A DNA stretch of 64,000 nt from Candidatus Tanganyikabacteria bacterium (GTDB taxonomy: Bacteria > Cyanobacteriota > Sericytochromatia > S15B-MN24 > VGJW01): contig VGJY01000002.1 of the NCBI GenBank assembly GCA_016867235.1, forward strand, positions 2,647 through 66,646, written 5' to 3'. Each line of letters opens with the position of its first letter. Position 1 is the stretch's first letter. The translations under genes and the position numbers were made by a program. Of this stretch, positions 2,055 to 60,025 are shown piece by piece. Under the pieces are notes generated by a model that was given only the letters and a program-made list of their open reading frames with translations, made no database searches and had not been told where the DNA came from.

Positions 2055-3590
2055 TCAGCGCGCGTCCAGCACGCGCAACTGCAGCGCCTCCTTGAGGTCG
2101 TCGGAGCGGATCTCGTCGCGGCCGGCCAGGTCGGCGAGGGTGCGCGCCACCTTGAGCACCCGGTCGTAGGTGCGCGCGGTGAGGCCGAGTTGCCGGATGG
2201 CGCCGGCCAGCACCCGCTCGCTCGCCGCGTCGAGCCGGCAGTGCTGGCGCAGCTCCCGGCCCACCATCTGGCCGTTGCAGACGATCCGGCCGCCGCGGCC
2301 CTGGAACCGCCGGCCCTGCCGGGCCCGCGCCTCGCGCACGCGCTCCCGCACCACGGCGCTGGGCTCGCCCTGCGGCGCGGCCATGATCTGCTCGGCCTCT
2401 AGCCGGGGCACCTCGATGTGCAGGTCGAGCCGATCGACCAGCGGCCCGGAGATTCGCGACCAGTACCGGGCCACGCGATCCACCCCGCACGTGCAGGTCT
2501 TGACGCGATCGCCCGAGTAGCCGCACGGGCACGGGTTCATCGCCGCGGCCAGCGAGAAGTCTGCCGGATATGCGACCGTCGCGCGCGCCCGGCTGATAAC
2601 GACCCGCCTGTCCTCCAGGGGCTGGCGCAGCACCTCGAGCGTGCCGCGCGAGAATTCCCCGAGTTCGTCCAGGAAGAGCACCCCGCGGTGCGCCAGCGAG
2701 ACCTCGCCCGGGCGCGGCGCGCTGCTGCCGCCCACCAGGCCGGCGCACGAGATGCTGTGGTGGGGCGACCGGAATGGCGGGCGGCTCTCGAGGACGCCTC
2801 GCGATTCGAGCAGGCCGCCCACGCTGTATATTGCCGTCACCTCCAGGGCCTCGGGCGGCGTGAGCGGCGGCAGGATCGACGGAATGCGCCGCGCGAGCAT
2901 CGATTTGCCGGACCCGGGCGGGCCGATGAACAGCAGGTTGTGGCCGCCCGCGGCGGCGATCTCGACCGCCCGGCGCGCGCCGGGTTGTCCCTTGATGTCC
3001 GCCAGATCCGCCTCCATCCCGGGCGGCTCGGCCGCCGCGTCGCTCGCGACCTGCTCCGCCGGCCGCACGGCCGCCGGCTCTCGCAGGAAGGCGACCACTT
3101 CCTGGAGGGTCTCGAACGCGAAGACGTCGAGGCCCCCGACCAGCAAGGCCTCGGGCGCGGCCGGACGCGCGACGACCAGGGCCTGGCCCCAGCGCCGCGC
3201 CTCGATCGCCACGGGCAGTACGCCCGCGACCCTGCGGACGGAGCCGTCGAGCGCGAGTTCGCCCAGGAAGACGTAGCGGCCCAGATCCCCGGCGCCGAGG
3301 CTGTCCGCCGCTGCCAGCAACCCGATGGCGATCGGCAAGTCGAAGCCGGGACCGGCCTTGCGCAGGTGGGCGGGCGCCAGGTTGACCGTGATGCGGGTGC
3401 CGGGGGGATCGAACCCCGAGTTTCGCAAGGCCGCCCGGACGCGCTCCTTGCTCTCGTTGACCGCGGCATCGGGCAGACCCACGATGAGGAAGTTGGGCAG
3501 GCCGTTGGCCACGTCCACCTCGACGGCGACGACGACGCCCTGGATGCCCAGGGTCGCCCCTCCGGAAACTGTTGCTTGCATGATTCGCAT
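2055..3590 (-). CDS. comM: YifB/ComM family Mg-chelatase-like AAA+ ATPase
   Basis: Track ORF of 511 aa. It has a Lon-like N-domain, a Walker A motif GPPGSGKSML, the CPCG...C zinc motif and a C-terminal Mg_chelatase_C-like region. Confidence 0.85.
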   Translation of the reverse strand: MRIMQATVSGGATLGIQGVVVAVEVDVANGLPNFLIVGLPDAAVNESKERVRAALRNSGFDPPGTRITVNLAPAHLRKAGPGFDLPIAIGLLAAADSLGAGDLGRYVFLGELALDGSVRRVAGVLPVAIEARRWGQALVVARPAAPEALLVGGLDVFAFETLQEVVAFLREPAAVRPAEQVASDAAAEPPGMEADLADIKGQPGARRAVEIAAAGGHNLLFIGPPGSGKSMLARRIPSILPPLTPPEALEVTAIYSVGGLLESRGVLESRPPFRSPHHSISCAGLVGGSSAPRPGEVSLAHRGVLFLDELGEFSRGTLEVLRQPLEDRRVVISRARATVAYPADFSLAAAMNPCPCGYSGDRVKTCTCGVDRVARYWSRISGPLVDRLDLHIEVPRLEAEQIMAAPQGEPSAVVRERVREARARQGRRFQGRGGRIVCNGQMVGRELRQHCRLDAASERVLAGAIRQLGLTARTYDRVLKVARTLADLAGRDEIRSDDLKEALQLRVLDAR

Positions 3591-3606
3591 TGAATCATGT
3601 CGTCAA

Positions 3607-3715
3607 GGAGTGGGCAAGGCCCTCCCGGCCAGCGCTTCCTGGTAGGCCAGCATCGTCAGGCCGAACATCTGCTGCTTGAAGTCGTCGAGGGAGTTGCCGA
3701 ACGGGGGGAGCGGCA
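3607..3715. repeat. 109-bp perfect direct repeat, copy 1; an orphan duplicate of the 3' end of the gene at 8155-9063
   Basis: It is identical over 109 bp to 8159-8267. On the minus strand it would encode ...PLPPFGNSLDDFKQQMFGLTMLAYQEALAGRALPTP*, the C-terminus of the 302-aa protein. Confidence 0.8.
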
Positions 3716-3830: not shown

Positions 3831-5549
3831 TCAGAACGAGAGCGCCGGTCGGAACCCGAGACCGTCATCGGTCACCGAACGCCCATATCCGAGGACGTGG
3901 CACCAGAGCCCCGCCTTTCCCCCATAGTAAAACGATCCGCCACGCGTCGCCTTCTTGTTGACATCGAGACTCTTTCCAAAGTAATCGCCGGCGAAGTAGT
4001 CAATGGGAGACCCATCGGTGGTCGCTGCCAGGCCGAAACGGCGCAGCTGCGGATCCGTTGCAAGGGTCCTAACGTAGTTTCCTCCCGGCGCGGCCAAGGC
4101 CAGAGCGACGTCAAAGATCATGAAGTATCCCGTGGAAGCGGTCAGGCCAATTGTCTCCGTACGCTCCCACACGTTGCCGTTGAGGTCGAAGACACCTTCT
4201 GTAGTGCCAGTGTGGGTCGTGAGGTTGAGTTTGCCAACCCAACTGCTTGCTGTTGCTGTAGCCGAGCCCGTCAGGGCTCGATCATTGGTTGCCGATCCCC
4301 ACGAAATCGTCGGGTCATCCACGAACGTAATGTCAGGGGAGTCGATATCCCTGGCAACCGGGAAAAAGGTCGTGCTGCTTGTCTCAGCGTTGTTGCCAAA
4401 CACCGAAACGCCATTGATCGTTGCCCAGACTGCCATCGCGGTCCACTCCTCGTCGCGCATCAGATGGGCGTGCGCGTCGTAGGCTAGGCAAGTTTGCGCA
4501 GCAGCATCCCAAGTGATCTGGGTCCAAGGCACGCAGTACCTCGCCACCTTTAGACCGCTGGTGCTCCCGGCCGAAGCGCCTGCGCCGGTCGTTGGGTTCC
4601 CCGGCGTCGCGTCCGACCGGCTAGCTTCGTACTTGCCAGCGTAGAACCCGCCGAAGCGTTCCTCGGCCCAGTCCACGTCCTTGGTCCCGACGGTCGGCCT
4701 GTTGCCCACCCAGTACCCCACCGGCTTGGTCGTGTTGTCGCCGCCGCAGTTGGCCGGAACGATCAACTGGTAGGCCACGAAGTTGGGGATCCAGACAAAG
4801 GTGCTCTGCACGGCGCCCTTGGTCACGATGTAGTCGTGATGCTGCGTCGGGTCGCCGATGTCGTCGGGCGCCAGGTTCCCCAGGATCGTCTGGTAGAACT
4901 GCCCTGTCGTTCCGTTGAATGCCAGGTTCGCGAGCGGATCCAGGTCGGCACTCAGCATCGTCTGGACCAGGCTCTTGGCCTGGTTGAACTCGGCGGCCGA
5001 CCCGTTGGCGACCGGCGAGTACGAGGCGCCATTGACCGATTCGATGAGATCGGCTGCGCTCACTTGCTGCCCGGAGGCCAGCGCGAGTTTGAGCCCGAAA
5101 ATCCCGCATAGCGCGGTCGTGGAGGTGCTCAGCGTTGCCCCTCCGGCGGTGATCGCCTGCCAGGCCGTACCGTTGAAGCGGATCAGCGTCCGCAGCCTGG
5201 CGGCGTGCTTGCCCACGGCATTCGGGCCCAGGCCCTTGACCGCCTCCAGGATGTAGATCCGGTTGACGACCGGTACGTAGGACCCGAACGACAGCGAAAA
5301 TGACCCACCCGCGTCGCTCAGCGTCGTGGCAATCGCCGCACTGGTGGTCGTGTCGACGAAGGCGATGGTCGCCCCGACCGCCACGTCGGCCGCCGTGGCC
5401 AGGACCGTCCGGCGCAGGTCGGCCAGGTCGATGCGCCCGACGATCGGCGGAACTGCCTCGTCCACGTCCGAGGTCCCGGCCGGCCGGCCGGCCGGCGGGG
5501 AACACGCTGCCAGGAGTACGGCAGCCAACAGCGCGGCGAGCAGGTTCAT
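3831..5549 (-). CDS. lipoprotein with C-terminal formylglycine-generating-enzyme (FGE/SUMF1) sulfatase-modifying domain
   Basis: Track ORF of 572 aa. The N-terminus MNLLAALLAAVLLAACS carries a lipobox. The C-terminal half has the FGE hallmarks GNVWE...RGGSF...GFRPA. Confidence 0.7.
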   Translation of the reverse strand: MNLLAALLAAVLLAACSPPAGRPAGTSDVDEAVPPIVGRIDLADLRRTVLATAADVAVGATIAFVDTTTSAAIATTLSDAGGSFSLSFGSYVPVVNRIYILEAVKGLGPNAVGKHAARLRTLIRFNGTAWQAITAGGATLSTSTTALCGIFGLKLALASGQQVSAADLIESVNGASYSPVANGSAAEFNQAKSLVQTMLSADLDPLANLAFNGTTGQFYQTILGNLAPDDIGDPTQHHDYIVTKGAVQSTFVWIPNFVAYQLIVPANCGGDNTTKPVGYWVGNRPTVGTKDVDWAEERFGGFYAGKYEASRSDATPGNPTTGAGASAGSTSGLKVARYCVPWTQITWDAAAQTCLAYDAHAHLMRDEEWTAMAVWATINGVSVFGNNAETSSTTFFPVARDIDSPDITFVDDPTISWGSATNDRALTGSATATASSWVGKLNLTTHTGTTEGVFDLNGNVWERTETIGLTASTGYFMIFDVALALAAPGGNYVRTLATDPQLRRFGLAATTDGSPIDYFAGDYFGKSLDVNKKATRGGSFYYGGKAGLWCHVLGYGRSVTDDGLGFRPALSF

Positions 5550-8158: not shown

Positions 8159-9063
8159 GGAGTGGGCAAGGCCCTCCCGGCCAGCGCTTCCTGGTAGGCC
8201 AGCATCGTCAGGCCGAACATCTGCTGCTTGAAGTCGTCGAGGGAGTTGCCGAACGGGGGGAGCGGCATCTTGAACGTGCGCTCCCGCTCCCCGCCCGGCT
8301 TGATGACCGTGACGTCCACGACCGGAATGGCCGGATCCCAGCGCTCCACGAAGGTGCGCGGCTCGCCCGTCAGGTAATTGACCTCCTTGCGCACCGCGAG
8401 GCGCAACTCGGGCAGGCCCGTCGCCGGATCGGTGGTCAGTTCGGCCTCGTACCCGCGGTCGATCGGCAGCAGCGGGATGCGGCTCAGGAAGGCCTCCAGC
8501 GGCGAAGGCGTGGCGACCCAGGTGATGGGCGGGACGAACGAACCGGAGGCCGAGGCGCTCGCCGGCAGGCTCGTCACCTGCTCGGTGCCCGTGCTCTCGG
8601 GAGTCGTGGGGTAGAAGCGGTGGGCGTTTTCGGCCACCACCTTGTCCACGGCCTTCGTGAGGGCGCTTGCCGAACTGGCCGACAGCCCGAGTTGTTGCAG
8701 GCGCTTGACCATCAATTGCGCCTTGGCCTCGTCCACCCGTTGCAGCGCCGGATTCAGCTTCTTGTACTCGGCCAGCTCCTTGGGCGGCACGGTAGGCGTC
8801 GGCCGGGGCGTGGGCGTCGGGGCCGGGGGCCGGGGCGTCGCCGCCGCCGACCGATCCGGGTAGGCGATGGGGCTCTCGCGGCGCGGCTCATCGGCTCTTG
8901 GCGCCGGCCTGGGCAGATCCACCAGGCGTACCAGCGGCGGGATACTGGGTGCCGGGCTTGCCGCCCGCGGGCCGCGCACGCGCAGCAGGGCCACGCCCAC
9001 GACCAGCAGCGCCAACCCCAGGTGGACGGCGACCGACGCGCCGAGCCACCGCTTCTTGATCAT
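8155..9063 (-). CDS. single-pass membrane protein with Pro-rich linker; hypothetical
   Basis: Track ORF of 302 aa. A TM segment near the N-terminus is followed by a PTPTPRPTPT linker. The 3' end of the gene is copy 2 of the 109-bp repeat. Confidence 0.6.
   Translation of the reverse strand: MIKKRWLGASVAVHLGLALLVVGVALLRVRGPRAASPAPSIPPLVRLVDLPRPAPRADEPRRESPIAYPDRSAAATPRPPAPTPTPRPTPTVPPKELAEYKKLNPALQRVDEAKAQLMVKRLQQLGLSASSASALTKAVDKVVAENAHRFYPTTPESTGTEQVTSLPASASASGSFVPPITWVATPSPLEAFLSRIPLLPIDRGYEAELTTDPATGLPELRLAVRKEVNYLTGEPRTFVERWDPAIPVVDVTVIKPGGERERTFKMPLPPFGNSLDDFKQQMFGLTMLAYQEALAGRALPTP
8159..8267. repeat. 109-bp perfect direct repeat, copy 2; the native 3' end of the 8155-9063 gene
   Basis: Identical to 3607-3715. 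Confidence 0.8.
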
Positions 9064-25710: not shown

Positions 25711-26310
25711 ATGGCGGCCCCGAATGGAGGACGGGCCCTGCTAAGCTGGATCCCCATGCCGGGATCGATCCGTTTCTGCACGCACTGCGGCGCCGCCGTG
25801 CGGCTGGAGATCCCGGCCGGCGACAACCGCGAGCGGCACGTCTGCCCGACCTGCGCGCACATCCAGTACGTCAACCCGCGCATCGTCGTCGGAGCGGTCA
25901 GCGCCTGGGAGGGCCGCCTCCTCCTCTGCCGCCGGGGCATCGAGCCCCGATCGGGGTTCTGGACCGTCCCGGCCGGCTTCATGGAACTCGGGGAGTCGGC
26001 CGAGGAGGGCGCCGTCCGCGAAACGCTCGAAGAAGCGTGCGCCCAGGTAGAAATCGCGGCCCTGCTGGGAGCATACAGCGTCCCGCGCATCGACCAGGTT
26101 CACCTGTTCTACGCCGCGAGGATGCTGGAGCCCGCGCACGGGAGCGGCGCCGAGACCCTCGAGGCCCGGCTGGCGACCTGGGACGAAGTGCCCTGGGAGG
26201 AGCTGGCATTCCCTTCGGTTCGGTGGGCCCTCGAGATCTACCGCGAGTATGCCGCGTCCCGGCGGGAGGCCTGGCAGCCGCGCGCCGCCGCCTGGGCGCC
26301 CGAGTGCTAG
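25711..26310 (+). CDS. NUDIX hydrolase with N-terminal zinc-ribbon
   Basis: A CxxC...CxxC zinc ribbon precedes the Nudix box GFWTVPAGFMELGESAEEGAVRETLEEA. An alternative start lies at 25756. Confidence 0.65.
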   Translation: MAAPNGGRALLSWIPMPGSIRFCTHCGAAVRLEIPAGDNRERHVCPTCAHIQYVNPRIVVGAVSAWEGRLLLCRRGIEPRSGFWTVPAGFMELGESAEEGAVRETLEEACAQVEIAALLGAYSVPRIDQVHLFYAARMLEPAHGSGAETLEARLATWDEVPWEELAFPSVRWALEIYREYAASRREAWQPRAAAWAPEC

Positions 26311-27218
26311 AGGATCCGCTGGCCGACGGCCGAGAGGATCAGCTCCACCGCCAGCTCCGAGGTGCGGTTGCGCTCGTCGAAGATCGGGTTGACTTCGACC
26401 AGGTCGAGGCTGGTGAGCCTGCCGGAGTCGGCGATGAGTTCCATCGCGAGGTGGGCCTCCCGGTAGGTCGGCCCTCCCGGGCACGGCGTCCCCACCCCCG
26501 GCGCGTACTGCGGATCCACGAAGTCCATGTCGAAGCTCACGTGCAGGGCCTGGGTGTCGCGGGTCGCCATGGCGATCGCCCGCGTCACCACCTCGCGGAT
26601 CCCCAGTTCGTCTACGGCGCGCATCGTGAAGATGTGCATCCCCGAGGCGCGCAGCAATTCGCGCTCCCGGGAATCCACGTCCCGGATGCCGATCAGCACG
26701 GTATCCTCGGGCCGCACCTTCGGGGCGAAGCCGCCCAGACCGACCAGTTGCGCGTCGCCTAGGCCCTGCACCACGGCGAGGGGCATCCCGTGGATGTTGC
26801 CGCTGGGCGAGGATGCGGGGGTGTTGAAGTCGCCGTGGGCGTCGAACCAGATCAGGCCGAGGCGCCCTCCGGAACGCACCACGGGCGCGGCCGCCGCGGC
26901 GATCGTGCCGATGGCGATGCTGTGGTCCCCCCCCAGGAAGATCGGGAACTCGCCCGCGGCGACGATGCGGCCGGCCGCCTCGGCCGCCAGCTGGCAAGTG
27001 GCGAGGATCTCCTCGTAGAACTTCAGCGTCGTGGCGCCCGCCGACACGGTCTCGGGCATGGGCGCCGCCACGTCGCCGGCATCCCGCACCGCGAAGCCGA
27101 GCGCGCGCAACTTGTCCCCCAGGCCCGCGATGCGGAGCGAGCGGGTGGCCATGTCGACTCCCCGGTGGCCTGCGCCCAGGTCCATGGGAATCCCCAGCAC
27201 CGCGATCGGTCTGTTCAT
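26307..27218 (-). CDS. arginase/agmatinase/formiminoglutamase family hydrolase
   Basis: 303 aa with the ureohydrolase motifs GGDHSIA...DAHGD...SFDMD. GGAGG lies 6 nt upstream of the ATG. Confidence 0.8.
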   Translation of the reverse strand: MNRPIAVLGIPMDLGAGHRGVDMATRSLRIAGLGDKLRALGFAVRDAGDVAAPMPETVSAGATTLKFYEEILATCQLAAEAAGRIVAAGEFPIFLGGDHSIAIGTIAAAAAPVVRSGGRLGLIWFDAHGDFNTPASSPSGNIHGMPLAVVQGLGDAQLVGLGGFAPKVRPEDTVLIGIRDVDSRERELLRASGMHIFTMRAVDELGIREVVTRAIAMATRDTQALHVSFDMDFVDPQYAPGVGTPCPGGPTYREAHLAMELIADSGRLTSLDLVEVNPIFDERNRTSELAVELILSAVGQRIL

Positions 27219-27307
27219 TGAAGCCTCCTCGGGGGGGTGCCGCCCCCCCGAGCCCCCCCGCAATGCCATCCGTGACGCTCCGCCGGGCGTCCCTGCCCGG
27301 CGTGGGG
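27219..27307 (-). promoter_or_regulatory. structured 5' leader element, copy 1
   Basis: It shares about 80 nt with 32905-32990. A 10-bp hairpin CUCGGGGGGG/CCCCCCCGAG overlaps the SD GAGGAGG. A second hairpin at 27281-27302 shows compensatory changes relative to copy 2. Confidence 0.55.
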
Positions 27308-27439
27308 GTTGCACAGCGGTGCCGGCGAAGCTGTTTGATCGCGCACTGCCTCGCATTATAGGGGAAAGGTACGGATAAGGACCGGTTAACCTTTGCCTAA
27401 GTCGCGTCAGGCGAGGCCCTCTCCGGCCGACATTTCCAG

Positions 27440-28216
27440 GTGGTGATGGTGTCAGCAGTCGGGAGCTACCGCGGGGCGATCGCGCCGCGGGTGGCCGGTT
27501 TCGCTCCGTCGGCCCCGGTCTACCCCGGGACGACGCCGCCGGCACAGCCTGCCCCGCAGGGCCCGGTCAACACCCTGCCCGATCCTGCCAACCCGGTGGC
27601 GGCGATCCTGGCCGCGCCGATCAACGCCTCGCTCATCGTCGCCGATCTGGTCCAGGCGCTGTCGCATCCGATCAAGACGATCAAGAGCCTCTGGAGCCTG
27701 ATGGGCAACCTCGGCAAGTTCGATCGGCTCACACCGCTGCAGGCCGCGTCCGGGCCCGCCGCTCGCGATTCCCTGCACGCCGCGGTCGCCGATCTCAAGT
27801 CCAGCGGTCTCACGCACGTCCTCGGTTTTGCCGCCCGCGCCATCGACCGCCGGGCCGGCGTCGCCTTCGCGCAGTTGCGCCCGAGCGTCGAGCAGACGCT
27901 GGGCGGCCGCGCCGGCCGGCCGATCAACCTGATGTGGCCCGCCGCCGGCCGCAACTGGACCGCCCTCGACGACACGATCACGATCCAGAACGTCCTGGCG
28001 CAGTACCCGGACGCCATCGTGCAGAAGGCCTTCATGGGAGTGTCCGAGATCCAGGTGGTGGACCAGAGCTTCCAGGGCTACTTCCAGCCCGTCCGCCGCT
28101 CCGGCGCCGCCTTGATCGTTTCGCGCCCGCTGGGCCTGGTACCCGGCGAGAAGCGCCTTGACGAGTCGCTGATGGCCTACCTCAACGAGGCGGGCCGCGT
28201 CAGCGCCAACTTCTAG
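27440..28216 (+). CDS. hypothetical protein (258 aa)
   Basis: Track ORF with protein-like composition. Confidence 0.45.
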
Positions 28217-28872
28217 AGCGTCAACTGGCCCGAGACCAGGTCCCGGACGGGCTTGAAGCTCCGGCGGTGCGCCTCGCAGGGGCCCCGTTCGGCCAACGCG
28301 GCCAGGTGCTGGGCGGTCGGGTAGCCCTTGTGGCGATCGAAGCCGTAGGCCGGGAAGCGGGCATGGAGGTCGGCCATGAGCTTGTCGCGGTGCACCTTGG
28401 CCAAGATCGACGCGGCGGCGATCGAGACGCATAGCGCGTCGCCGCCGACGATCGCCTCCTGCGGCACGTCGAGGTCGGGGATCGGGAAGTTGCCGTCCAC
28501 GAGCACGAAGTCGGGCGCGAGGGAGCAGCCGTCGGCTCCTAGCTCCTCGAGCGCACGGCGCATCGCCTCGAGCGACGCTCGCAGGATGTTGAGGCGGTCG
28601 ATTTCGGCCACGTCGCAAAGGCCGACGCCCCAGGCCAGGGCGTGCGCCCGTATCGCGTCGGCACAGGCGTCGCGAGCCCCTTCCGAGAGCTGCTTGGAAT
28701 CGCGCACGTCGCAAAGGGCTTTGCGAGCCTTGCGGTAGCCCCGATCGCCCCGTCCGGGCAAGACGACTGCGGCGGCCACCACCGGCCCGGCCAGGGGCCC
28801 GCGGCCGGCTTCGTCGACACCGGCCACGCGGCGCGAGCCGTACTTCCAGAGGGCAACTTCCCTGGTCCACAT
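28213..28872 (-). CDS. rnhB: ribonuclease HII
   Basis: An internal ATG gives [32 protein letters not shown]...; the DEAGRGP catalytic motif is present. 219 aa. Confidence 0.85.
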
Positions 28873-29034
28873 AAGTCTGCGGCCTACAGCGCCAGGCTCG
28901 GGAAGAGGCCGCCGGCCGCAGACCCGGCGCCAAAAGGGCGCCCCGACGGCGCTCGGCGCCGAGCGGCCCCCATCGAAACCCTTCCTTCCATGCCTGCCGA
29001 TCATACCCTGGCGGGAGTGATATCCTGAACGCGT

Positions 29035-31695
29035 ATGGGAGGCTCCGCGGCGCAAGTCGACGCGTTCGTGGCGCGCCAGCCCTTCCCCCTCGACGACTTT
29101 CAGCGTGAGGCGATCGAGCACTTGGCGGCCGATCGGTCGGTGCTCGTCTCGGCTCCCACGGGCGCCGGCAAGACCGTCGTCGCCGAATTCGCCGTCCATG
29201 CGGCCCTGGGAGCGGGGCGCCGCTGCATCTACACCACGCCGCTCAAGGCGCTTTCGAACCAGAAGTTCCGCGACCTGCGCGAGTACCTGGGAGAGGCGGT
29301 CGGCCTGATGACGGGCGACGTCGTGATCAACGCCGAAGCCCGCATCCTCATCATGACGACCGAGATCCTGCGAAACATCTTGCAGACCGACCCGGACCGC
29401 GTCGCCGACGTCTCGCACGTCATCCTCGACGAGGCGCACTACATCGGCAGCGAGGGCCGCGGGACCGTCTGGGAGGAAACCATCGTCTTCCTCGGCAAGG
29501 GCACTCTCGTCGTCGCCCTGTCGGCCACCATCCCCAACGCCCAGGAACTCGCGAGCTGGGTCTCCGAGGTCCACCGGCCCATGAGCGTCGTATTCCACGC
29601 CGAGCGCCCGGTCCCGCTGGATTCTTACGTGGCCACGCCCGACATCCAGCGCCTGTTCGACGCCCGCGGCCGCCTGGCGGTCCGGGCGTTCCGCCTGGAC
29701 GGCTGGGTGGACCTGCCCGATCCGGTGGACGTGGTGCGGGGCCTCAAGCTCAAGCGCATGCTTCCGGCCATCTACTTCATCTTCTCGCGCCTGGGCTGCG
29801 AGCAGACCGCCCAGGATCTCATCGCGGCCGACCTGGATTTGACCACCAAGGACGAACGCCTGGAGATCGCCGCCCGGGTGGAGGAGGCCGTCGCCAAGAC
29901 ACCGGGCCTGCTGGGCTCGACGTCGTCGCGCAAGTGGCTCGACGCCCTGCCCAACGGCGTCGCGCCGCACCATGCCGGCCTGCTGCCGCCCCTCAAGCTC
30001 GTGGTAGAGAAGCTCTTCCAGCGAGGGCTGATCAAGGTCGTCTTCGCCACCGAGACGTTGGCGGCGGGCATCAACATGCCGGCCCGCACGGTCGTCGTCT
30101 CGAACCTCCTCAAGCGAACGGACGACGGCGTCAGGATGCTGCACGTGGGCGAGTTCGCGCAGATGACGGGCCGCGCCGGCCGCCGGGGCATGGACAAGGT
30201 CGGCCACGCCGTCGTGCTCGCCTCGCATCGCTACACGCCGCATGACATCGCCCACCTGGTGCGCGATCCCGTCGAACCGCTGCGCAGCCGCTTCACGCTC
30301 AACTACAACATGGTGGCCAACCTGACGCACCGCTACGAGCCCCCCGCGGCCAAGCGCATCGTCGAGCAGAGCTTCGCCAGTTTCCAGGGCGATCAGGTCA
30401 TCGCGCACCTCGTCGAGCAAAGGCGGGAGGTGCAGCGGCGCCTTGGCCGCATCGACCTGCGTTGCCCGGTCCTCCCCGACGCCGGCCGGGAGGACCTGCT
30501 GGGGCGCTTCGCCACGGCGCGCGGCAAGCGCGACTCTCTCAAGAAGCGCCTGGGCGCCATGATGGCCCAGCGGCGCTACTTGCCGCGGCCCGTCGCGGCC
30601 GAGCGCATCGCCAGGGCGGCCATCGGCTCCTGGCTGCTGGTGCACCTGCCCGGGCGCACCCGCCCGGAACTGGCGCTCCTGCTGCACAGGCAGCTCACAA
30701 GGAGCGGCGACGCCCACTTCACGGTGCTGACCGACCTGCCAGCCCTGATCCGCCTGGGGACCGCGCACCTGGTCGCCGTCCTGGATGCCGCGCCGGTCTC
30801 CGAGCTGCCGCCCCAGCCCGTCCTGGCCAAGGCCGGCGCCCTGTCCTTCCTCCAGCAGATCAAGCCGGCGGGTTACGAGCCGCGTTTCCCGGCGTGGCTG
30901 GAGAGCAGCGGCCTGGACCTGGCCGACTTCGGCTGGACGCTGGAAGAACCGCCCGACATCCGCCGGGCGAAGGCCAAGCTGGATGAAGTCCTGCTGGAGC
31001 TGGGCCGCCTGCCTTGCGTCACCTGCCGGGTCCGGGTCGAGTGCAGCGACCTGGTCGACGAACACCGCCTGCTCGGCAAGGAAGAATCCGCGCTCGGCCG
31101 GGAGATCGAACAGGTCAAGAGCGCCCACTGGCGCGAGTTCCAGGCCCTGCACCGGGTGCTCGAGGAACTCGGCTACATGCGCGGCCGGGAATTGCTCGCG
31201 CGCGGCGCGGCGATCGCCAACATCCGCACCACGAATGAACTCATGGCCGCCGAATGCGTGGCCGGCGGCTTCCTGGAAGATCTGGGCCCGGTAGCGGTGG
31301 CGACCGTGGTGAGCTGCCTGGTCGCCGAGCCGCCGCGCGGCCGGCAGGCCTGGCACCCCCTGCCGTACCGGGACGCCGTCTACAAGATCTGCCGGCAACT
31401 GGCGCTGATCGGCCGCGACCTGGTGAAGGTGCAGCGGCAGTTCAGCGTCGATCTGCCGGTCTACCTGGAGCGCGAGTACGCCGGACTCACGCAGGCCTGG
31501 GCCGAGGGCGGCGCATGGGCCGATCTGGTCGCCGCCTCCGGCATCGACGAGGGGCAACTCGTGCGCCACCTGCGCCAGGTCATCGACTTGCTGCAGCAAT
31601 TGCGCGAGGTGCCGGGGGTCGGGGCGGCGTTCCACGCGAAGGCCCGCGACGCCGCGGCCTTGCTGGATCGCGACATCGTGAAGGAGGTCTTCTGA
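29035..31695 (+). CDS. Ski2-like/HelY-type DEAD/DEAH-box helicase
   Basis: 886 aa with helicase motifs [12 protein letters not shown] (ILDEAHY), SAT and [10 protein letters not shown], plus Ski2-type C-terminal domains. Confidence 0.8.
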
Positions 31696-32904
31696 CTACT
31701 CCCGGAAGCGCGGCAAGCTGACGAGAGTGCCGTTGCGGGCCTCGACCCCCACCCGGGGAGCAAACGTCGCGCCCGAGGGGAAGGCGACCCAGAGCGGTTC
31801 CTTGAGCCGGTAGTAGAACGGGTACAGCACGACCGCAGAGCCGGGCCCGAGCCACCCGACCTGCCGCTCCACGTACTCGCTCTCGAGCATCTCGAGGGCG
31901 CGGGGCGAATCCACCCGCGCCTTGGCCAGCAGGTCGGTGCCTGCTCGCCATTGCGTCCACTCCCCGCCGGCCGCGCGCCAGGTGGGGCCGCCGCCGAAGC
32001 GCGGCACCGTGACGTCGATGTCGCCGGCCTTGACCGAACTGGTGGCAGCGAACACCACGTGCCAGTCACCTTCCTTGACCAGGCCCGGCTTGAAGTCCCG
32101 GATATCCCGGGTGTAGGCCAGGTACGGCGCCCAGTCCGCCCCCAACTGACCGCGGACGGCGACCGTCGCCTTCCGCAACGCCCACAGCCCGGATCCCTCC
32201 TCGCCCTCGGGGAGGTCGGCGGGAACCGCGGCCGGCGTCGGGGACGGGGACGCGCCGATCGTCACCGTCGCGACGTCGGCGGTGCGGAGGTTGAGTTCCC
32301 GGGCAAGCCGCTTGTTGTAATCGTCCACCGCGGCCTTGGCGACGTCCTGCGCGAGGTACCTTGGTCGCAACGTCCCGGCCGACTCGCCGACCAGTTCGCC
32401 CAGCAACCAGGCGCCATACAGGGCCATGCCGGCGCCGGCGGCCGCGAGGCCGAAGCCGCGCCAGTCGGCGCCGCAGCCGGCGATCACGGTGGTGTCGTCG
32501 CATGGCACGGCGGGAAACGGCGCCAGGAGCGACGGCGGCAACGTGACCGCGCCCAGCTTGGTCTCGGTCGGCCGCTTGCCGAAGAAGTTGTCGACGGCCA
32601 GCAGCAAGCCCAGCGGCAGCGCCAGGCTGCCGACCTCGACCCGATACAGCCACGAGCGCGTCATGTTGCGCCTGACCCGCCGCTCGAGCTCGGGATCGGC
32701 CGAAGACGTCGCCAGGTCCAGGTCGGAAATGGGCCTCGAGCCGCGCTTGACCGAGTAGGAAGCCGAGCCTTCCGCCTTGAAGTCGATCGCCCGGTCGGTG
32801 TACTCCTTGATCCGCTCGGTCGGATCGTCGGCCACCTCGGCGTCTACCGGGCTCGAAACGGCCAGCAGCGCCGCGAGCGCGACCACGAGACCGGGACGCT
32901 TCAT
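31696..32904 (-). CDS. secreted hypothetical protein (402 aa)
   Basis: An internal ATG gives the signal peptide MKRPGLVVALAALLAVSSPVDA. It is preceded by leader element copy 2. Confidence 0.55.
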   Translation of the reverse strand: MKRPGLVVALAALLAVSSPVDAEVADDPTERIKEYTDRAIDFKAEGSASYSVKRGSRPISDLDLATSSADPELERRVRRNMTRSWLYRVEVGSLALPLGLLLAVDNFFGKRPTETKLGAVTLPPSLLAPFPAVPCDDTTVIAGCGADWRGFGLAAAGAGMALYGAWLLGELVGESAGTLRPRYLAQDVAKAAVDDYNKRLARELNLRTADVATVTIGASPSPTPAAVPADLPEGEEGSGLWALRKATVAVRGQLGADWAPYLAYTRDIRDFKPGLVKEGDWHVVFAATSSVKAGDIDVTVPRFGGGPTWRAAGGEWTQWRAGTDLLAKARVDSPRALEMLESEYVERQVGWLGPGSAVVLYPFYYRLKEPLWVAFPSGATFAPRVGVEARNGTLVSLPRFRE

Positions 32905-32990
32905 AGCCTCCTCGGGGGGGTGCCGCCCCCCCGAGCCCCCCCGCAGTGTCGTCCGTGACGATCCGCCGGACATCCCTGTCCGGCGAGGGG
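32905..32990 (-). promoter_or_regulatory. structured 5' leader element, copy 2
   Basis: Same G7/C7 hairpin and SD as copy 1. The hairpin at 32964-32985 carries compensatory G-C to A-U substitutions. Confidence 0.55.
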
Positions 32991-33042
32991 CGCGTGCACC
33001 GGTGTCGGCGCAGCCGGTGAACAACTCATATGACGGACATCA

Positions 33043-33798
33043 ATGCTAGCATGGGCTGCTTTGAGCGATATCACCGACATCTTCGCCGCGGACAGCCGAC
33101 TTGGCCAGATCCTCATCCGTCGCGGCGTGGTGACGCCGGCCGAACTGGAGGACGCCCTGCGCGTCCAGGAAGCCCAGCCGGAGCGGCAACTCGGAGAGAT
33201 CCTGGTCGCCCAGCACTCGGCCACGCCGAGCCAGATCCGCGAGGCGCTGCGCGATCAGCTTGCCGACGCCCGCCTGGGGCAGATCCTGGTGCGCATCGGC
33301 GCGGTCAAGCCCGAGCACCTCGGCGAGGCCCTGGATCTCCAGGCCGACCGCGGCGGCTTGCTGGGCGAGATCCTGGTCGAGCTGGAATTCTCGACCAAGG
33401 AGCAGATCGCCTGGGCCCTCTCGCAGCAGAACGCCGAGAAGCGTTTCGGGTCGTTCCTGCTGCGGCGCCGCCTCATCGCGCCCGAGCAGCTCGACCAGGC
33501 GATGCGCCTGCTGGGCAAGCGCCCCGACGCCCTGCTGTCGGAGATCCTCGTCGAGGAAGGGTACCTCACCCTCGAGCAGGTGCAGGAAAACCTGCGCTTC
33601 CAGCTGCAGGAAGCCCGCCTGGGCCAGATCCTCATCAAGCAGGGCTCGCTCACCGAGGGCCAGCTCGAGCAGGCCCTGATCCGCCAGGGAGCCACGGGTC
33701 AACTCCTGGGCGAGATCCTGGTGGCCACCGGCCTGTGCACGCTCGAGCAGATCGGGCGCGCCCTCGAAGAGCAGATGGCAACGACAAGCGAGTCGTGA
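33043..33798 (+). CDS. stand-alone protein of tandem T2SSE_N/MshEN-type repeats (predicted c-di-GMP-binding)
   Basis: 251 aa with eight copies of the 24-residue motif (R/Q)LG(Q/E)IL(V/I)xxGxxTxxQLxxALxxQ. Confidence 0.65.
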   Translation: MLAWAALSDITDIFAADSRLGQILIRRGVVTPAELEDALRVQEAQPERQLGEILVAQHSATPSQIREALRDQLADARLGQILVRIGAVKPEHLGEALDLQADRGGLLGEILVELEFSTKEQIAWALSQQNAEKRFGSFLLRRRLIAPEQLDQAMRLLGKRPDALLSEILVEEGYLTLEQVQENLRFQLQEARLGQILIKQGSLTEGQLEQALIRQGATGQLLGEILVATGLCTLEQIGRALEEQMATTSES

Positions 33799-48575: not shown

Positions 48576-51281
48576 CTAGCCCGTGTAGGGCACCGGCGGC
48601 ATGCTCACCGGATAGCTGGGTGCCGGGCCGTAGCCCTCGGCCTGCCGCAGGACCGTGGCGATGGCCTCCTCGGTGTCCGCGCAGCCGATGACGACCAGAT
48701 CGCCCTCGCGGGCCAGGCTCATGCCGTAGTTGATGGACTCGGCCTCCTGGAGCACCACGTGCAGGCGTTCGGCGGAGAAGTTCGCGCTCTCGACGCCGCG
48801 CTTGATGACCCCTGCGACCTCGCCCGCCTGCCGGCCGCGCAGATCGGTCATCTCGCGCACCACCAGTTCGTCGAAGGTGCCGGCGCAGATGCGCCCGACC
48901 TCTTCGAGTTTCTCGTCGTAGCGGTCGCCCGGCGCGGTGATCACGCCGATGAGGCGCCGCCGTTCCATCTGCGCCACGGTCTCGCAGATGGCGCGATAGG
49001 AATCGGGATTGTGGGCGTAGTCGATCAAGACGGTGAAATCGCGCACCCGCACCATGTTGAGGCGGCCCGGGTTCTGGTCGATGGTGCTCTGGAACGACGC
49101 CACGCCGCTCACGATCTGGTCGTGCGAGAGGCCCGCATGGATGAGGATTGCCACCGCCGCCAGCAGATTCTCGACGTTGTGGCGGGCGCGGCCGCGCAGG
49201 GTCACCGGGATGCGTTCGACCTCCACCAGGGGCATCCGGTGCTCGCCGACCGCGACCATGATCATGTTGCGCCGCAGGTACACCGCCGTCCCGCCCTTCA
49301 TCAGGTGATCCTCCACGACGGGATGGCGGTCCTCGGTCGAGAAGAACGTCACCTTGGTGCCCTCGGGCGCCTCCTGGGCCATCTCGCGGCAGTGGGCGTC
49401 GTCGGCGTTGAGGACCGCGTGGCCCTTGGCGCGCTGCACGAGCAAGCGCTTCACGCGGGCGAGATCTTCCAGGCTCTCGGCGCCATGCTGGCCGAGGTGA
49501 TCGTCGCGGATGTTGAGCACGGCGCCGACATCGCACCACTCGAATGCCATGCCGCGCTTGAAGAGGCCCCCGCGGGCGGTCTCGAGCACGGCGAACTCGC
49601 ACTGGGGATCGGTCAGCACCGTCCGCGCCGACCAGTAGCCGGTGCAATCCCCCTTCACGACTCGCTTGCCGTCGAGGTAGATGCCCTCGGTGGTGGTGAC
49701 GCCGACGCGGATGCCGGCCTGGCGGATGGCGTGGCCCACCAGCAAGGCGGTGGTGGTCTTCCCGTTGGTGCCGGTGATCGCCACGATCGGGATGCGCGTG
49801 GGGCTGCCGGGCGGGTAGAGCATGTCGATGATGGCGGCGCCGACGTCGTGGGGTTCGCCCTCGCTGGGATGCTGGTGCATGCGGATGCCGGGGGCGGCAT
49901 TCACCTCGATGATGGCTCCGCCCTGCTTGTCCAGGGGCTGGGAGATGTCCTCGACCACCACGTCGATGCCGGCGACGTCCAGTCCGACCTTCTTGGCGGC
50001 GCGGACGGCCATCACCGCGTTTTCCGGGTGGATCTGATCGGTCAGGTCGATGGCCGTCCCGCCGGTGGACAGGTTGGCGTTGCTGCGCAGGAGCACCATG
50101 GCGCCCTCGGCCGGGACGCTGTCGGGCGTGCAACCCTGCTTTTGCAGGACCTCGACGACGTTGCCGTCGATCTTGAGCTTGGTCAGGGGCTTTAGATGGC
50201 CGGTGCCGCGGCGCGAATCCGTATTGGCCTCCTCCATGAGCTGCTTGATGGACTGCCTGCCGTCGCCGATCACGTGGGCGGGCAAGCGCCGGGCCACCGC
50301 CACCACGCGATCGCCCACCACGAGCACGCGGTGGTCCTGGCCCTTGATGAACTCCTCGACGAGCACGCTGCGGCCGTACTCGCGGGCGAGATGGAAAGCG
50401 GCCTCGACGTGGGCCGGATCGGACACGTTGACCGTGACGCCCTTTCCCTGGTTGCCGTAATGGGGCTTGACGGCCACCGGCCTGCCCATGCGCCGCGACA
50501 CCGCCAGCGCCTCCTCCACCCGCGTGACCACCTCGCCGCGGGGGACGGGCAAGCCCGCCTCGCGCAGGAGCGCGTTGGTCAGATCCTTGTCCGACGCGAT
50601 ATCGACCGCGATGTGGCTCGTCTCGCTGGTGAGCGCCGCCTGGATGCGCCGCTGGTAGCGGCCGTAGCCAAGCTGGAACAGCGACGCCTCGTCGGTCACC
50701 CGGAACGTGGGGATGCCGCGCCGCGCCGCGGCCTCGACGATGGCCGCGGTGCTGGGCCCGAGGCTGTGGCGCTTGGCCCAGTAGCGCAGGTTGTCGAGAT
50801 CCTCCGCGATATCGAGCATCTCCCCGCGGCACAGCGACTCGACGATGCGGATGCCGACCCACACGGCCTCCTGGACGACCTTCTCGAGCTTGTACGACAC
50901 GACGATCTGGTAACAGCCAGGATGCCGCTTGACCTCGCGGGCCTTCCCGTAGCCCACGTCGACGCCCGCCAGGCACTGCAACTCGATGATGGTGTGCTCG
51001 AGGATGTGCGCCATGTAGGTGCCTTCGTGGAGGCGTTCCACGAAGCCGCCGCGGTAGCCGCGGGAGCAGCGGTGATCCCCCAGCGTCGGGATCAGGTCGA
51101 CCATCTTGTCGGCAAAGCCCGGGAAATCGGTCGACGGCCGGTCGTACAGCTCCTGGAGATCGACCACGAGCAAGTAGGCGGGCCGGGGGCTGTAGAGGTT
51201 GGGACCGCGCAGGACGCGCCTCTCCAGGACCTTGATGGGCAACTTGGGGATCTCCTCTCGACGGCCGCGGGAAGTCGCCAT
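48576..51281 (-). CDS. cphA: cyanophycin synthetase
   Basis: 901 aa with an ATP-grasp N-terminal half and a Mur-ligase-like C-terminal half (ITGTNGKTTT). Confidence 0.85.
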   Translation of the reverse strand: MATSRGRREEIPKLPIKVLERRVLRGPNLYSPRPAYLLVVDLQELYDRPSTDFPGFADKMVDLIPTLGDHRCSRGYRGGFVERLHEGTYMAHILEHTIIELQCLAGVDVGYGKAREVKRHPGCYQIVVSYKLEKVVQEAVWVGIRIVESLCRGEMLDIAEDLDNLRYWAKRHSLGPSTAAIVEAAARRGIPTFRVTDEASLFQLGYGRYQRRIQAALTSETSHIAVDIASDKDLTNALLREAGLPVPRGEVVTRVEEALAVSRRMGRPVAVKPHYGNQGKGVTVNVSDPAHVEAAFHLAREYGRSVLVEEFIKGQDHRVLVVGDRVVAVARRLPAHVIGDGRQSIKQLMEEANTDSRRGTGHLKPLTKLKIDGNVVEVLQKQGCTPDSVPAEGAMVLLRSNANLSTGGTAIDLTDQIHPENAVMAVRAAKKVGLDVAGIDVVVEDISQPLDKQGGAIIEVNAAPGIRMHQHPSEGEPHDVGAAIIDMLYPPGSPTRIPIVAITGTNGKTTTALLVGHAIRQAGIRVGVTTTEGIYLDGKRVVKGDCTGYWSARTVLTDPQCEFAVLETARGGLFKRGMAFEWCDVGAVLNIRDDHLGQHGAESLEDLARVKRLLVQRAKGHAVLNADDAHCREMAQEAPEGTKVTFFSTEDRHPVVEDHLMKGGTAVYLRRNMIMVAVGEHRMPLVEVERIPVTLRGRARHNVENLLAAVAILIHAGLSHDQIVSGVASFQSTIDQNPGRLNMVRVRDFTVLIDYAHNPDSYRAICETVAQMERRRLIGVITAPGDRYDEKLEEVGRICAGTFDELVVREMTDLRGRQAGEVAGVIKRGVESANFSAERLHVVLQEAESINYGMSLAREGDLVVIGCADTEEAIATVLRQAEGYGPAPSYPVSMPPVPYTG

Positions 51282-51605
51282 GGTAGCTCAGGCCGCGTCT
51301 TTATTGAACTTTTAACACAAGGAATCGTGACTTAACGCCCATAACACTCCCGGGGTAGCACAGGTGGTGGGGTAACTCGGAGATGTTCAGATCGTGTCCT
51401 GACATGTGGCCGCATCTGCAGCGGCCGGAGAAGTCGGCCGAGGCGGCCGTGGGTCGCCGAACGCGCACGATGCCGCTGGTTCTGGACGAGGTGCGCGAGA
51501 TCGTGGAGTCCAGCTTGCGGCGGGCGCCGCGGCGGGCGCGCACCAGGGAGCTGCGGCTGCTGTTCTCGTCTTGAGGCCTCGCGGCTCGGGGGGCCGTCCG
51601 GACGC

Positions 51606-52517
51606 CTAGGGGCGCGGCGCGATTGACCGCTGCCGCTCGGCCTGGGCCTCCGACTGGATGCCGATCGCGGGCCAATCCGGTTCGGGACAGCCGCAGCGCC
51701 AGTCCGCGCCTAGCGGCACGCGATTCTCGATGTTGAACGCCATCCCGGCGGGCAGCATGTGGAGCCGTACGTTCATCATCGCCAGCAACTCGCCCGTCTC
51801 GGCGGTCGTGACGTTGGAGTTGCCGATCTCGCGGCCGTCCAGGATGGTCACCATCCCACTGCCGACGATGCGGAAGTCGTAGTTCGGACAGACCACCATC
51901 GCCGTGTTCTCGTCGATGCCCAGCCCCAGGATGAACGGGTTCTGGGCCACTATCGACAGCAAGCGTCCCAGTCGCTGCCGCTGCAGGAAGTGCTGATCGA
52001 CGACCACGCGCCGCAGGAAGCCCAGGCCGGGGGCCAGGTGCAACATGTGCTTGCGCGGGTGCAGGCCCATGCCCCCCTCGGCGATCATGTGTTCGCTGAT
52101 GGCACTCGCCCCCGCCGACGTGCCTGCGATGGTGAGGCCGCGCTTGTGTGCGCGGTGCATGGCCTTGGCGACCTCGGTACCTCCCAGGATCGACGAGATC
52201 CGGTTCTGGTCGCCGCCCGTCAGGAAGACGCCGGTGCTTGCATACACCAGGTCGGCGTGGGCGGGATCGTTGGCCTCCTCTCGCGAGTCGATCGGCAGGT
52301 ATTGCACCTCGGCGGCGCCAAGAAGCTTGAACAGCCGCGCGTAGGTCTGCCACTTGGCCTCGGCGTTCAGCGAAGCCGTGGGGACGACCACGATGCGGGC
52401 GTTGCGGCCACCGGCGATGTCCACGACCGAGGCGAGGATGGGACTGTCGATTTCCTTGGACTCGGCCCCGCCGATGAGGATCAGGTGGCCGCGGCGATTC
52501 GGCGCATCAATGGTCAT
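51606..52517 (-). CDS. cphB: cyanophycinase (peptidase S51)
   Basis: An internal ATG gives MTIDAPNRRGHLILIGGAE. The motif GTSAGASA and a Ser-His-Glu triad context are present. Confidence 0.8.
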   Translation of the reverse strand: MTIDAPNRRGHLILIGGAESKEIDSPILASVVDIAGGRNARIVVVPTASLNAEAKWQTYARLFKLLGAAEVQYLPIDSREEANDPAHADLVYASTGVFLTGGDQNRISSILGGTEVAKAMHRAHKRGLTIAGTSAGASAISEHMIAEGGMGLHPRKHMLHLAPGLGFLRRVVVDQHFLQRQRLGRLLSIVAQNPFILGLGIDENTAMVVCPNYDFRIVGSGMVTILDGREIGNSNVTTAETGELLAMMNVRLHMLPAGMAFNIENRVPLGADWRCGCPEPDWPAIGIQSEAQAERQRSIAPRP

Positions 52518-52545
52518 GCAAGGCGGATCATACCCGCCCGCGGCC

Positions 52546-53004
52546 TCAACCGCTCTTCGAGATCGTGCGCGAGTGGTCGGCCAGCGACGCGGCGAGCGAC
52601 TCCAGGCCCAGGAACAGCCACTTCCGCTCGGCCGGGGGCAGATCGAGCACGTGACTCGCGCGATTGAGGTCGAGGGTGACCCCAGCGCCACGCGCTTCTT
52701 CCAGCGTCTCCCACTCCTCGTCCGTCAAGGGGTGCTTGCCCGCGGTAGGCCGGCAATCCACGACCTCGAGCCGCGGCTCCTCGCCGCGGGCGACACGGAA
52801 CAGGAACTCGGCATCCACGCGCAGGCCATGGGCGAGTTTCTGCAGGGTGTCGAGCGAGGGGGCCTTCGTGACGCGGCCGACCATGATGTTGGCCAGCGTG
52901 CCCGGATTAAGGCCGGAGAGCCGAGCGAGCTCATTCTGGCTGATCCCCAGCTCCGCTCGGCGGACCCGGATAAAGGCCACGAGACGATCTACAGCGGATT
53001 TCAT
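52546..53004 (-). CDS. XRE-family helix-turn-helix transcriptional regulator
   Basis: ELGISQNELARLSGLNPGTLANI is an HTH_3-type motif. The gene is 28 nt upstream of cphB on the same strand. Confidence 0.7.
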   Translation of the reverse strand: MKSAVDRLVAFIRVRRAELGISQNELARLSGLNPGTLANIMVGRVTKAPSLDTLQKLAHGLRVDAEFLFRVARGEEPRLEVVDCRPTAGKHPLTDEEWETLEEARGAGVTLDLNRASHVLDLPPAERKWLFLGLESLAASLADHSRTISKSG

Positions 53005-59980: not shown

Positions 59981-60025
59981 CTTGAGTCTGTATATACACA
60001 CGAACCCTCGCGTACTATCTAGTTC

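Follow-up and report, generated by a model that had tools for sequence, protein, structure and literature searches.

A putative small insertion element as the structured 5' leader of two neighbouring genes in a Candidatus Tanganyikabacteria contig

The locus

The stretch of DNA considered here, called the window, comprises 64,000 nucleotides (nt) of contig VGJY01000002.1 from a Candidatus Tanganyikabacteria bacterium and is 69.5% GC. It carries two copies of a GC-rich block of 113 nt, 5.7 kb apart and in the same orientation, directly in front of an arginase gene and of a gene for a secreted protein. Each copy sits in a divergent intergenic region and brings a Shine-Dalgarno (SD) sequence, GAGGAGG, close to the start codon. 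Is the block a conserved regulatory RNA, or a repeat element that came to rest at two start codons? The genes and copies, in window coordinates, are:

26307..27218, minus strand: arginase gene rocF, downstream of copy 1 (TIGR01229 at 296 bits; PF00491)
27222..27334, minus strand: copy 1 of the 113-nt shared block, the arginase leader (ungapped alignment; covariance-model self-hit of 129.6 bits)
31696..32904, minus strand: gene downstream of copy 2; its 402-aa product carries a signal peptide
32905..33017, minus strand: copy 2 of the 113-nt shared block, the leader of the 402-aa secreted-protein gene (covariance-model self-hit of 128 bits)

Family searches gave no assignment for the 402-aa secreted protein.

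In an ungapped alignment the copies are identical at 95 of 113 positions. All 18 differences lie in the first 72 nt, which are 25% diverged, and none in the last 41 nt; with uniform placement assumed, the probability of such clustering is about 1e-4. A 29-nt core, GGGGGGGCTCGGGGGGGCGGCACCCCCCC, occurs exactly twice in the window and in none of 100 shuffles, and six of the eight runs of at least seven G or C in the 64 kb fall within the two copies. A Logan contig (k=31) with an identical arginase stops precisely 33 nt upstream of the arginase start codon, just where assembly at k=31 should break when a repeat has at least two copies.

An initial annotation, made from the sequence itself, had described two minus-strand copies that were not a chance repeat, and both points stand. 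The in-frame N-terminal extension that it saw in the open reading frames (ORFs) of both genes (...RGGSGGRHPPEEA) is real. The shared block is real as well, but its length, given as about 85 nt, has to be raised to 113 nt. The placement next to SD and AUG, described as identical, differs: between GAGGAGG and AUG stand CUUCA in copy 1 and CU in copy 2, spacings of 5 and 2 nt.

Empty sites in related genomes

Related Sericytochromatia-like contigs with homologues of both genes were compared with the window. The block was not found upstream of any of the seven arginase orthologues (L122, L242, L246, L247, L251, L252 and L253), which share 70-84% amino-acid identity with the window arginase, nor upstream of any of the four orthologues of the secreted-protein gene (L122, L123, L124 and L242). 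The initial annotation had proposed a covariance-model search of relatives; a model built from copies 1 and 2 (R1) gave no hit above noise upstream of the orthologues in these contigs.

The closest relative for the secreted-protein gene, L123 (67% amino-acid and 74-86% nucleotide identity), offers an empty site. It reads ...GCTAGCATCAATGTTTGTCTTATGAAGCG, where the window reads ...GCTAGCATTGATGTCCGTCATATGA(120 nt)TATGAAGCG. Relative to L123, the window is 125 nt longer here, the added stretch being flanked by a duplicated TATGA. By BLAST, window 31342-32905 matches 1737-189 of L123, and window 33026-33218 matches 193-1; on the L123 side these ranges overlap by 5 nt. The features of both insertion sites are:

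32906..33025, minus strand: insertion of 120 nt without L123 counterpart, containing copy 2 (BLAST and alignment)
33026..33030, minus strand: upstream TATGA, with the former start codon ATG at 33029-33027; single in L123 (189-193)
32901..32905, minus strand: downstream TATGA, with the working start codon ATG at 32904-32902
27335..27338, minus strand: TCAA directly 5' of copy 1, repeated directly 3' of it at 27218-27221; candidate 4-bp target duplication

At copy 1 a second pair of flanking sequences can be proposed, CAGTG (27344-27348) with CAATG (27216-27220). These flank an insert of 123 nt, and this option would place GTG at the ancestral start.

Promoter-like boxes and upstream reading frames

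Where would transcription and translation begin at these loci? The relevant features, including two putative upstream open reading frames (uORFs), are:

27355..27360, minus strand: TATAAT, a -10-like box upstream of copy 1; its counterpart in relatives is CCTGCTA(GG/CC/GC)AT
33043..33048, minus strand: TAGCAT, a -10-like box upstream of copy 2; kept in L123, with TAACAT at the same place in L122 and L242
27215..27346, minus strand: putative copy 1 uORF of 43 codons; GTG at 27346, 8 nt after TATAAT; its UGA overlaps the arginase AUG (AUGA)
32901..33029, minus strand: putative copy 2 uORF of 42 codons; starts at the former ATG; its UGA overlaps the gene AUG (AUGA)

In five arginase relatives (L246, L242, L247, L251 and L252), CCTGCTA(GG/CC/GC)AT is followed after 6-7 nt by ATG, and the secreted-protein gene in L123 and L122 has TAGCAT or TAACAT 10-13 nt before ATG. 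Orthologues of both genes look almost leaderless, and the ancestral state appears to have been nearly leaderless. Because the block lies in sense orientation between a -10-like box and the start codon, it would be a 5' leader, with transcription in both loci presumably starting just upstream of it. An in-frame ATG within copy 1 (GGATGG, 17 codons upstream) was considered as the arginase start and rejected, because copy 2 has ACG there and the N-termini of the orthologues match the annotated ATG.

On translation, both uORFs run in one frame of the element, and each closes on AUGA, its stop overlapping the AUG of the gene. The peptide that they would encode is not conserved; the differences are spread 8:3:7 over the codon positions (hand count). 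Open frames are common in the GC-rich block, five of six in copy 1 and three of six in copy 2, and the chance of both copies falling in the AUGA frame is about 1 in 9. Translational coupling via the uORF and AUGA is plausible.

Farther upstream, the intergenic region between the arginase and its divergent gene (window 27385-27420) contains a conserved motif, CTGACGCG-N-CTTA-N5-AAGGTTAACC-N4-CTTA, found in relatives at about 9900-9935 of L242, about 4020-4055 of L246 and about 12250-12285 of L122. It resembles an operator or promoter element held in common, with the palindrome GGTTAACC at its centre. The usual arginase upstream region is roughly 120-175 nt, and both the gap from -10 box to ATG and the upstream spacer vary much among relatives. 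One arginase relative has an upstream region of 565 nt with short GGAATG/GGCTGG-type repeats (L247 2641-3207; L248 187-753).

Predicted RNA structure

The consensus fold of the two copies has four helices, one of which pairs the upstream C-run with the first G7 tract and closes a three-way junction. The elements of the fold are:

27228..27252, minus strand: copy 1 main hairpin, CUCGGGGGGG-CGGCA-CCCCCCCGAG, 10 bp; its 3' arm takes in the first GAG of the SD
32911..32935, minus strand: copy 2 main hairpin, the same 10 bp as in copy 1 (sequence and consensus fold)
27224..27230, minus strand: copy 1 SD GAGGAGG, 5 nt before AUG; predicted unpaired probability at most 0.04 per nucleotide
32907..32913, minus strand: copy 2 SD GAGGAGG, 2 nt before AUG; predicted paired except for one G
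27253..27259, minus strand: copy 1 first G7 tract, pairs with the C-run 27304-27308; alternative partner of C7
32936..32942, minus strand: copy 2 first G7 tract (consensus fold)
27281..27302, minus strand: copy 1 upstream 8-bp hairpin, CGCCGGGC-AGGGAC-GCCCGGCG
32964..32985, minus strand: copy 2 upstream hairpin, CGCCGGAC-AGGGAU-GUCCGGCG; one compensatory pair, G-C to A-U (alignment columns 39/48)
27267..27277, minus strand: copy 1 small 4-bp hairpin, CGUC-ACG-GAUG, with a G-U pair
32950..32960, minus strand: copy 2 small 4-bp hairpin, CGUC-ACG-GACG, with a G-C pair

All three stem substitutions keep pairing, and 15 of the 18 differences fall at unpaired positions. The 10-bp hairpin beside the SD and the covarying upstream hairpin with its single double change, both first pointed out in the initial annotation, recur in the two copies. 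The same annotation had the SD sequestered by pairing of its first GAG. Folding agrees that the SD is buried, but buries more of it: in both copies the AUG is predicted to be free and GAGGAGG almost wholly paired. With the SD paired in this way, independent initiation at it should be poor. As to the mutually exclusive helices proposed between the C7 tract and either of the two G7 tracts, the alternative can form, but at a cost: forcing the second G7 tract to be unpaired takes 13-14 kcal/mol.

Folding at 15, 37 and 45 °C predicts one and the same structure, as does folding with G-quadruplexes allowed. An RNA thermometer is unlikely, because the fold is unchanged at 45 °C; the helix that holds the SD, which in a thermometer would melt in the physiological range, is predicted to be a perfect 10-bp stem with seven consecutive G-C pairs. 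An intrinsic terminator was also considered and rejected, since no U-tail follows the hairpin. Terminator scans of the two leaders were empty.

A dispersed G-tract/C-tract hairpin repeat

The 3' part of the block has a wider distribution than the block as a whole. A core pattern of 24 specified bases (G6, 0-2 nt, CTC, G6, 5-9 nt, C6, GAG) was found at 117 or more metagenome loci, most of them from soil. The family consensus, GGGGGG-(TC/CA/GA)-CTCGGGGGG-CGGAG-CCCCCCGAG-(TG/GG), goes beyond what the pattern demands. The window copies fit the order of G-run, 0-2 nt, CTC, G-run, 5-nt loop, C-run and GAG, with G7/C7 runs and the loop CGGCA. The G6/C6 hairpin repeat is a class defined in this analysis, not a published family, and a literature search for the core repeat sequence returned irrelevant results and no description. 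Judged by sequence, the window core and the metagenome repeat appear to be of one family; common descent and convergence could each account for the likeness.

Some family copies stand alone; others form tandem arrays (L146) or inverted pairs (L239) or are joined to other small hairpin modules. By a crude count, 57 of 125 copies follow the stop codon of a long ORF by no more than 40 nt, and about 30 of 125 are found inside long ORFs with high GC content at third codon positions. In two biotin carboxylases (L170 and L219) the Pfam domain CPSase_L_D2 aligns unbroken across an 11-codon insert, GGSSGGGAPRV, and Anticodon_1 aligns across an in-frame insert in a valyl-tRNA synthetase. An in-frame copy is also present in a thiamine pyrophosphate (TPP) enzyme, again with an uninterrupted Pfam alignment. 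The metagenome repeat unit is 31-33 nt, about 11 codons; example loci among L125-L241 are L170 894-924, L219 9254-9284, L126 2807-2839 and L146 9673-9880. The core is also found with a single change (96.9% over a 32-nt BLAST alignment), and without the 5' part, in L233, a contig of 62% GC that is unrelated by tblastx. This G-tract/C-tract repeat, very abundant in soil metagenomes and in frame in essential enzymes, may merit a study of its own.

Other searches gave no relatives of the block. The core pattern had no match in viral contigs, where the 5' motif matched only two unrelated phage coding sequences, and BLAST of the block against plasmids found no match. A looser pattern, G6-N3-6-G6-N5-8-C6, proved too loose: it gave 120 chance matches in the genome collection, and none of them had to do with the block. 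A single protein query that joined the six frames from copies 1 and 2 scored with no called protein. The initial annotation had named copies in orientations unrelated to gene starts as the mark of a dispersed repeat; such copies exist for the 3' module, not for the full 113-nt block.

Is there a third copy of the full block? In L124, from the distantly related Cyanobacteria bacterium REEB65, R1 scores 26.8 bits at 4960-5071; counted from its ATG, the candidate extends over 4948-5071. It lies in a divergent intergenic region at the contig end and adjoins neither the arginase nor the secreted-protein gene. Of its first 33 nt, 27 match copy 2, including ATGAGTT, and the rest has the same layout as the block, with a hairpin, a G-run and a G6/C5 hairpin. 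These features are suggestive of a diverged third copy at a different locus. No further copies were found when nhmmer profiles of two or three copies were run against 1.7 Mb of fetched contigs.

Insertion element or regulatory leader?

The explanation we prefer, with somewhat better than even confidence, is that a lineage-specific, non-autonomous repeat was inserted at the two loci and now serves as the 5' leader of these neighbouring genes. The element would be about 120 nt long, would encode no transposase, and would consist of two parts: a variable 5' part with two short hairpins and an invariant 41-nt 3' part of the form G7-CUC-G7-loop-C7-GAG-GAGGCU, whose hairpin core would belong to the dispersed repeat family. 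It would have landed twice, both times in one direction and on a start codon, at two genes whose only SD (GAGGAGG) is the one contributed by the element. Ribosomes would still start at the old position near the mRNA 5' end, translate through the element, melting its hairpins, then terminate and re-initiate at AUGA with the aid of the element's SD. Only insertions in matching orientation and frame would leave the gene expressed. If coupling holds, the copies would be alike in placement because only sense, start-adjacent, in-phase insertions keep expression, and no regulatory purpose is needed. The insertion very likely changes the translation of both genes, and its net effect on expression would probably be a damping or coupling of translation, not ligand sensing.

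Several observations weigh against an insertion element. The full block amounts to two copies in the 64-kb window and one candidate in L124, which is weak by sequence alone (nhmmer E 0.2-0.3 in 1.7 Mb). By eye, the ends of either copy have no terminal inverted repeats; those of copy 2, GTTGTTCACCGG... and ...CCCGAGGAGGC, do not match each other as reverse complements, as the ends of a MITE (a miniature inverted-repeat transposable element) would. No transposase is present among about 48 window ORFs scanned against Pfam. The boundaries and duplication of copy 1 are ambiguous (TCAA, or CAGTG with CAATG). The leaderless starts are read from the conserved -10-like boxes alone, and a simple two-hexamer consensus promoter scan found nothing in either leader. 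The likeness of the core to the metagenome family is partly imposed by the search pattern. The invariant 41-nt tail, the structure-preserving changes and the sense orientation at start codons would also fit selection for function; the first two are compatible with function, with an end needed for mobility or with gene conversion.

Could the block instead be a true cis-regulatory leader, recently spread in this lineage and co-regulating the arginase and the secreted protein? We consider this unlikely, even though every copy is sense-oriented and adjoins a start codon, the 41-nt 3' part is invariant while the remainder is 25% diverged, the stem substitutions (three of three) keep pairing, and both uORFs use the same element frame and end on AUGA. 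Genomic context also speaks for it: the two genes are immediate neighbours in L122 and L252, and the window encodes a cyanophycin synthetase and a cyanophycinase, enzymes of an arginine-rich polymer. A leader-peptide attenuator is one form that this could take. With ...Pro-Pro-Arg-Arg-Leu at its end, the uORF has two AGG arginine codons that are the SD itself, and ribosome pausing at these codons under arginine scarcity might block arginase initiation. A related and very unlikely idea combines mobility with function: a mobile 'leader cassette' that settles on the start codons of leaderless genes, preserves a start codon at the 5' end of the mRNA and turns them into uORF-coupled genes, where the SD, doubling as two rare AGG codons, would form an arginine-sensing gate before arginase that could be copied to other genes. 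Against a cis-regulatory leader stands the absence of the block at all orthologous loci examined. Rfam 15 gave no match at gathering thresholds over the whole window, and at a permissive E-value only chance-level matches, e.g. CRISPR-DR29 with 21.7 bits where the threshold is 39. The uORF peptide lacks conservation (8:3:7), most frames are open anyway (5/6 and 3/6), and the shared AUGA frame has the chance of about 1 in 9 given above. Known switching elements are much less stable than these hairpins, and the core hairpin occurs in many non-leader contexts. A conserved leader would be present at orthologues and show covariation there; what is found is one compensatory pair, between two copies of one genome. 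Such a pair would be just as likely in a hairpin, of DNA or RNA, that travels with a repeat element. The initial annotation's proposal of a riboswitch, thermosensor or protein-binding leader with a small regulon is not upheld, given the lack of an Rfam match, the absence in orthologues, the L123 empty site, the dispersed core and the fold unchanged at 45 °C.

A one-off local copying event between loci 5.7 kb apart, with no regulatory purpose and no mobile family involved, is distinctly unlikely. It might have proceeded by microhomology-mediated template switching or ectopic gene conversion at the 4-5-nt junction matches. The short junction homologies TATGA and TCAA agree with it, as do the finding of no more than two copies in the 64 kb, which lie less than 6 kb apart as direct repeats, and the lack of terminal inverted repeats and of a nearby transposase; the identical 41-nt tail could be a recent gene conversion. 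The block is missing at both loci in relatives, however, which calls for at least two insertions from a source copy that is unseen, and the 25% divergence of the 5' part is hard to square with recent copying. The core hairpin is, moreover, common to a very large repeat family, and a candidate copy exists in another genome (L124). Action at the DNA level is highly improbable, be it phase variation by slippage-prone G7/C7 tracts or a G-quadruplex in G7-CTC-G7 (G3-N1-G3-N3-G3-N1-G3) competing with the hairpin. The tracts do exist and are rare elsewhere in the window, and the quadruplex motif can be read directly from the sequence; yet the tracts are as long in copy 1 as in copy 2, and as long in the part that the Logan contig covers, the 33 nt that precede the arginase ATG, the tracts lie outside the coding frame of the genes, and folding that allows G-quadruplexes still prefers the hairpin.

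The case shows how a repeat insertion can mimic a riboswitch, being present twice and having hairpins, a compensatory change and a place beside the SD, and how comparison of orthologous loci reveals a recent insertion instead. If the insertion reading is right, the locus would be a natural example of a structured insertion tolerated at a start codon, where the element supplies the SD, and the upstream start together with AUGA sustains ribosome flow.

Other features of the window

The window also contains a cyanophycin synthetase gene (48576-51287) and a Peptidase_S51 cyanophycinase-like gene (51606-52724), and cyanophycin genes are kept in the arginase neighbourhood in L122 and in another relative contig. 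The gene content points to a neighbourhood of arginine and cyanophycin turnover. Between window 26307-32904 and L122 10001-16573, a four-gene block from the arginase to a DEAD-box helicase is inverted relative to the secreted-protein gene; the two repeat copies, in direct orientation, do not flank this inversion.

Elsewhere, window 3664-3715 and 8216-8267, around G6 runs at 3703 and 8255, share about 53 identical nt (gaacatctgctgcttgaagtcgtcgagggagttgccgaacGGGGGGAGCGgca) and then diverge, which suggests a duplicated gene end or paralogous genes. A tandem repeat with a unit of about 34 nt (gcctgcgccaccgatggggg.ggggccggcctccg) lies at about 1930-2030, just downstream of a Mg-chelatase-like gene (2055-3602, minus strand). 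A gene for a D12-class adenine methyltransferase (58260-59447) adjoins one resembling Eco57I-type restriction-modification methylases (60023-61696).

Comparison with known systems

The arrangement at the two loci resembles leader-peptide attenuators and uORF coupling, such as the erm or cat leaders, in its short uORF, the SD held in a hairpin and the stop overlapping the main start. It differs in that the window uORF has no SD of its own, the peptide is unconserved and the arrangement would be born of insertion. The two G tracts, moreover, cannot pair together, so the classic switch between 1:2/3:4 and 2:3 pairing is unavailable.

Repetitive extragenic palindromes (REPs), with their REPIN and BIME arrangements, are mobilised by RAYT transposases. 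The G6/C6 family is similar to them: a short GC-rich hairpin unit of about 30 nt, with copies that are dispersed, mostly just after genes, some in arrays, inverted pairs and module combinations, and sometimes in frame within genes. REPs inside coding regions were reported by Di Nocera et al. 2013 (PMC3733652), and REP families are recognized by a palindrome of 20-40 nt that is tagged on one side with GTAG or CGTC (PMC3733652). The window palindrome, in contrast, lacks GTAG, and its only CGTC lies inside the small middle hairpin, not beside the main palindrome. No RAYT (IS200/IS605-like tyrosine transposase) was seen among the window ORFs scanned against Pfam. The window block is also a composite of 113-125 nt with a duplicated target sequence, unlike a REP.

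Rickettsia palindromic elements (RPEs) insert in frame into conserved proteins. The G6/C6 family does likewise in biotin carboxylase and valyl-tRNA synthetase with the domain alignment intact; its units are much shorter, however (31-33 nt, about 11 codons), and the two window copies are not inside genes.

MITEs, like the Correia, ERIC, BOX and RUP elements, are co-transcribed with a neighbouring gene, form stable hairpins and can alter the expression of that gene. The window element differs from them in lacking terminal inverted repeats, in carrying an outward-facing SD and in having both copies exactly on start codons. It is like them in being a non-coding insertion of the 100-150-nt class, missing in relatives, with a short target duplication at an AT-rich site. 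For copy 2 the signature is that of such an element: TATGA stands once in L123, and twice in the window, where it flanks the 120 nt.

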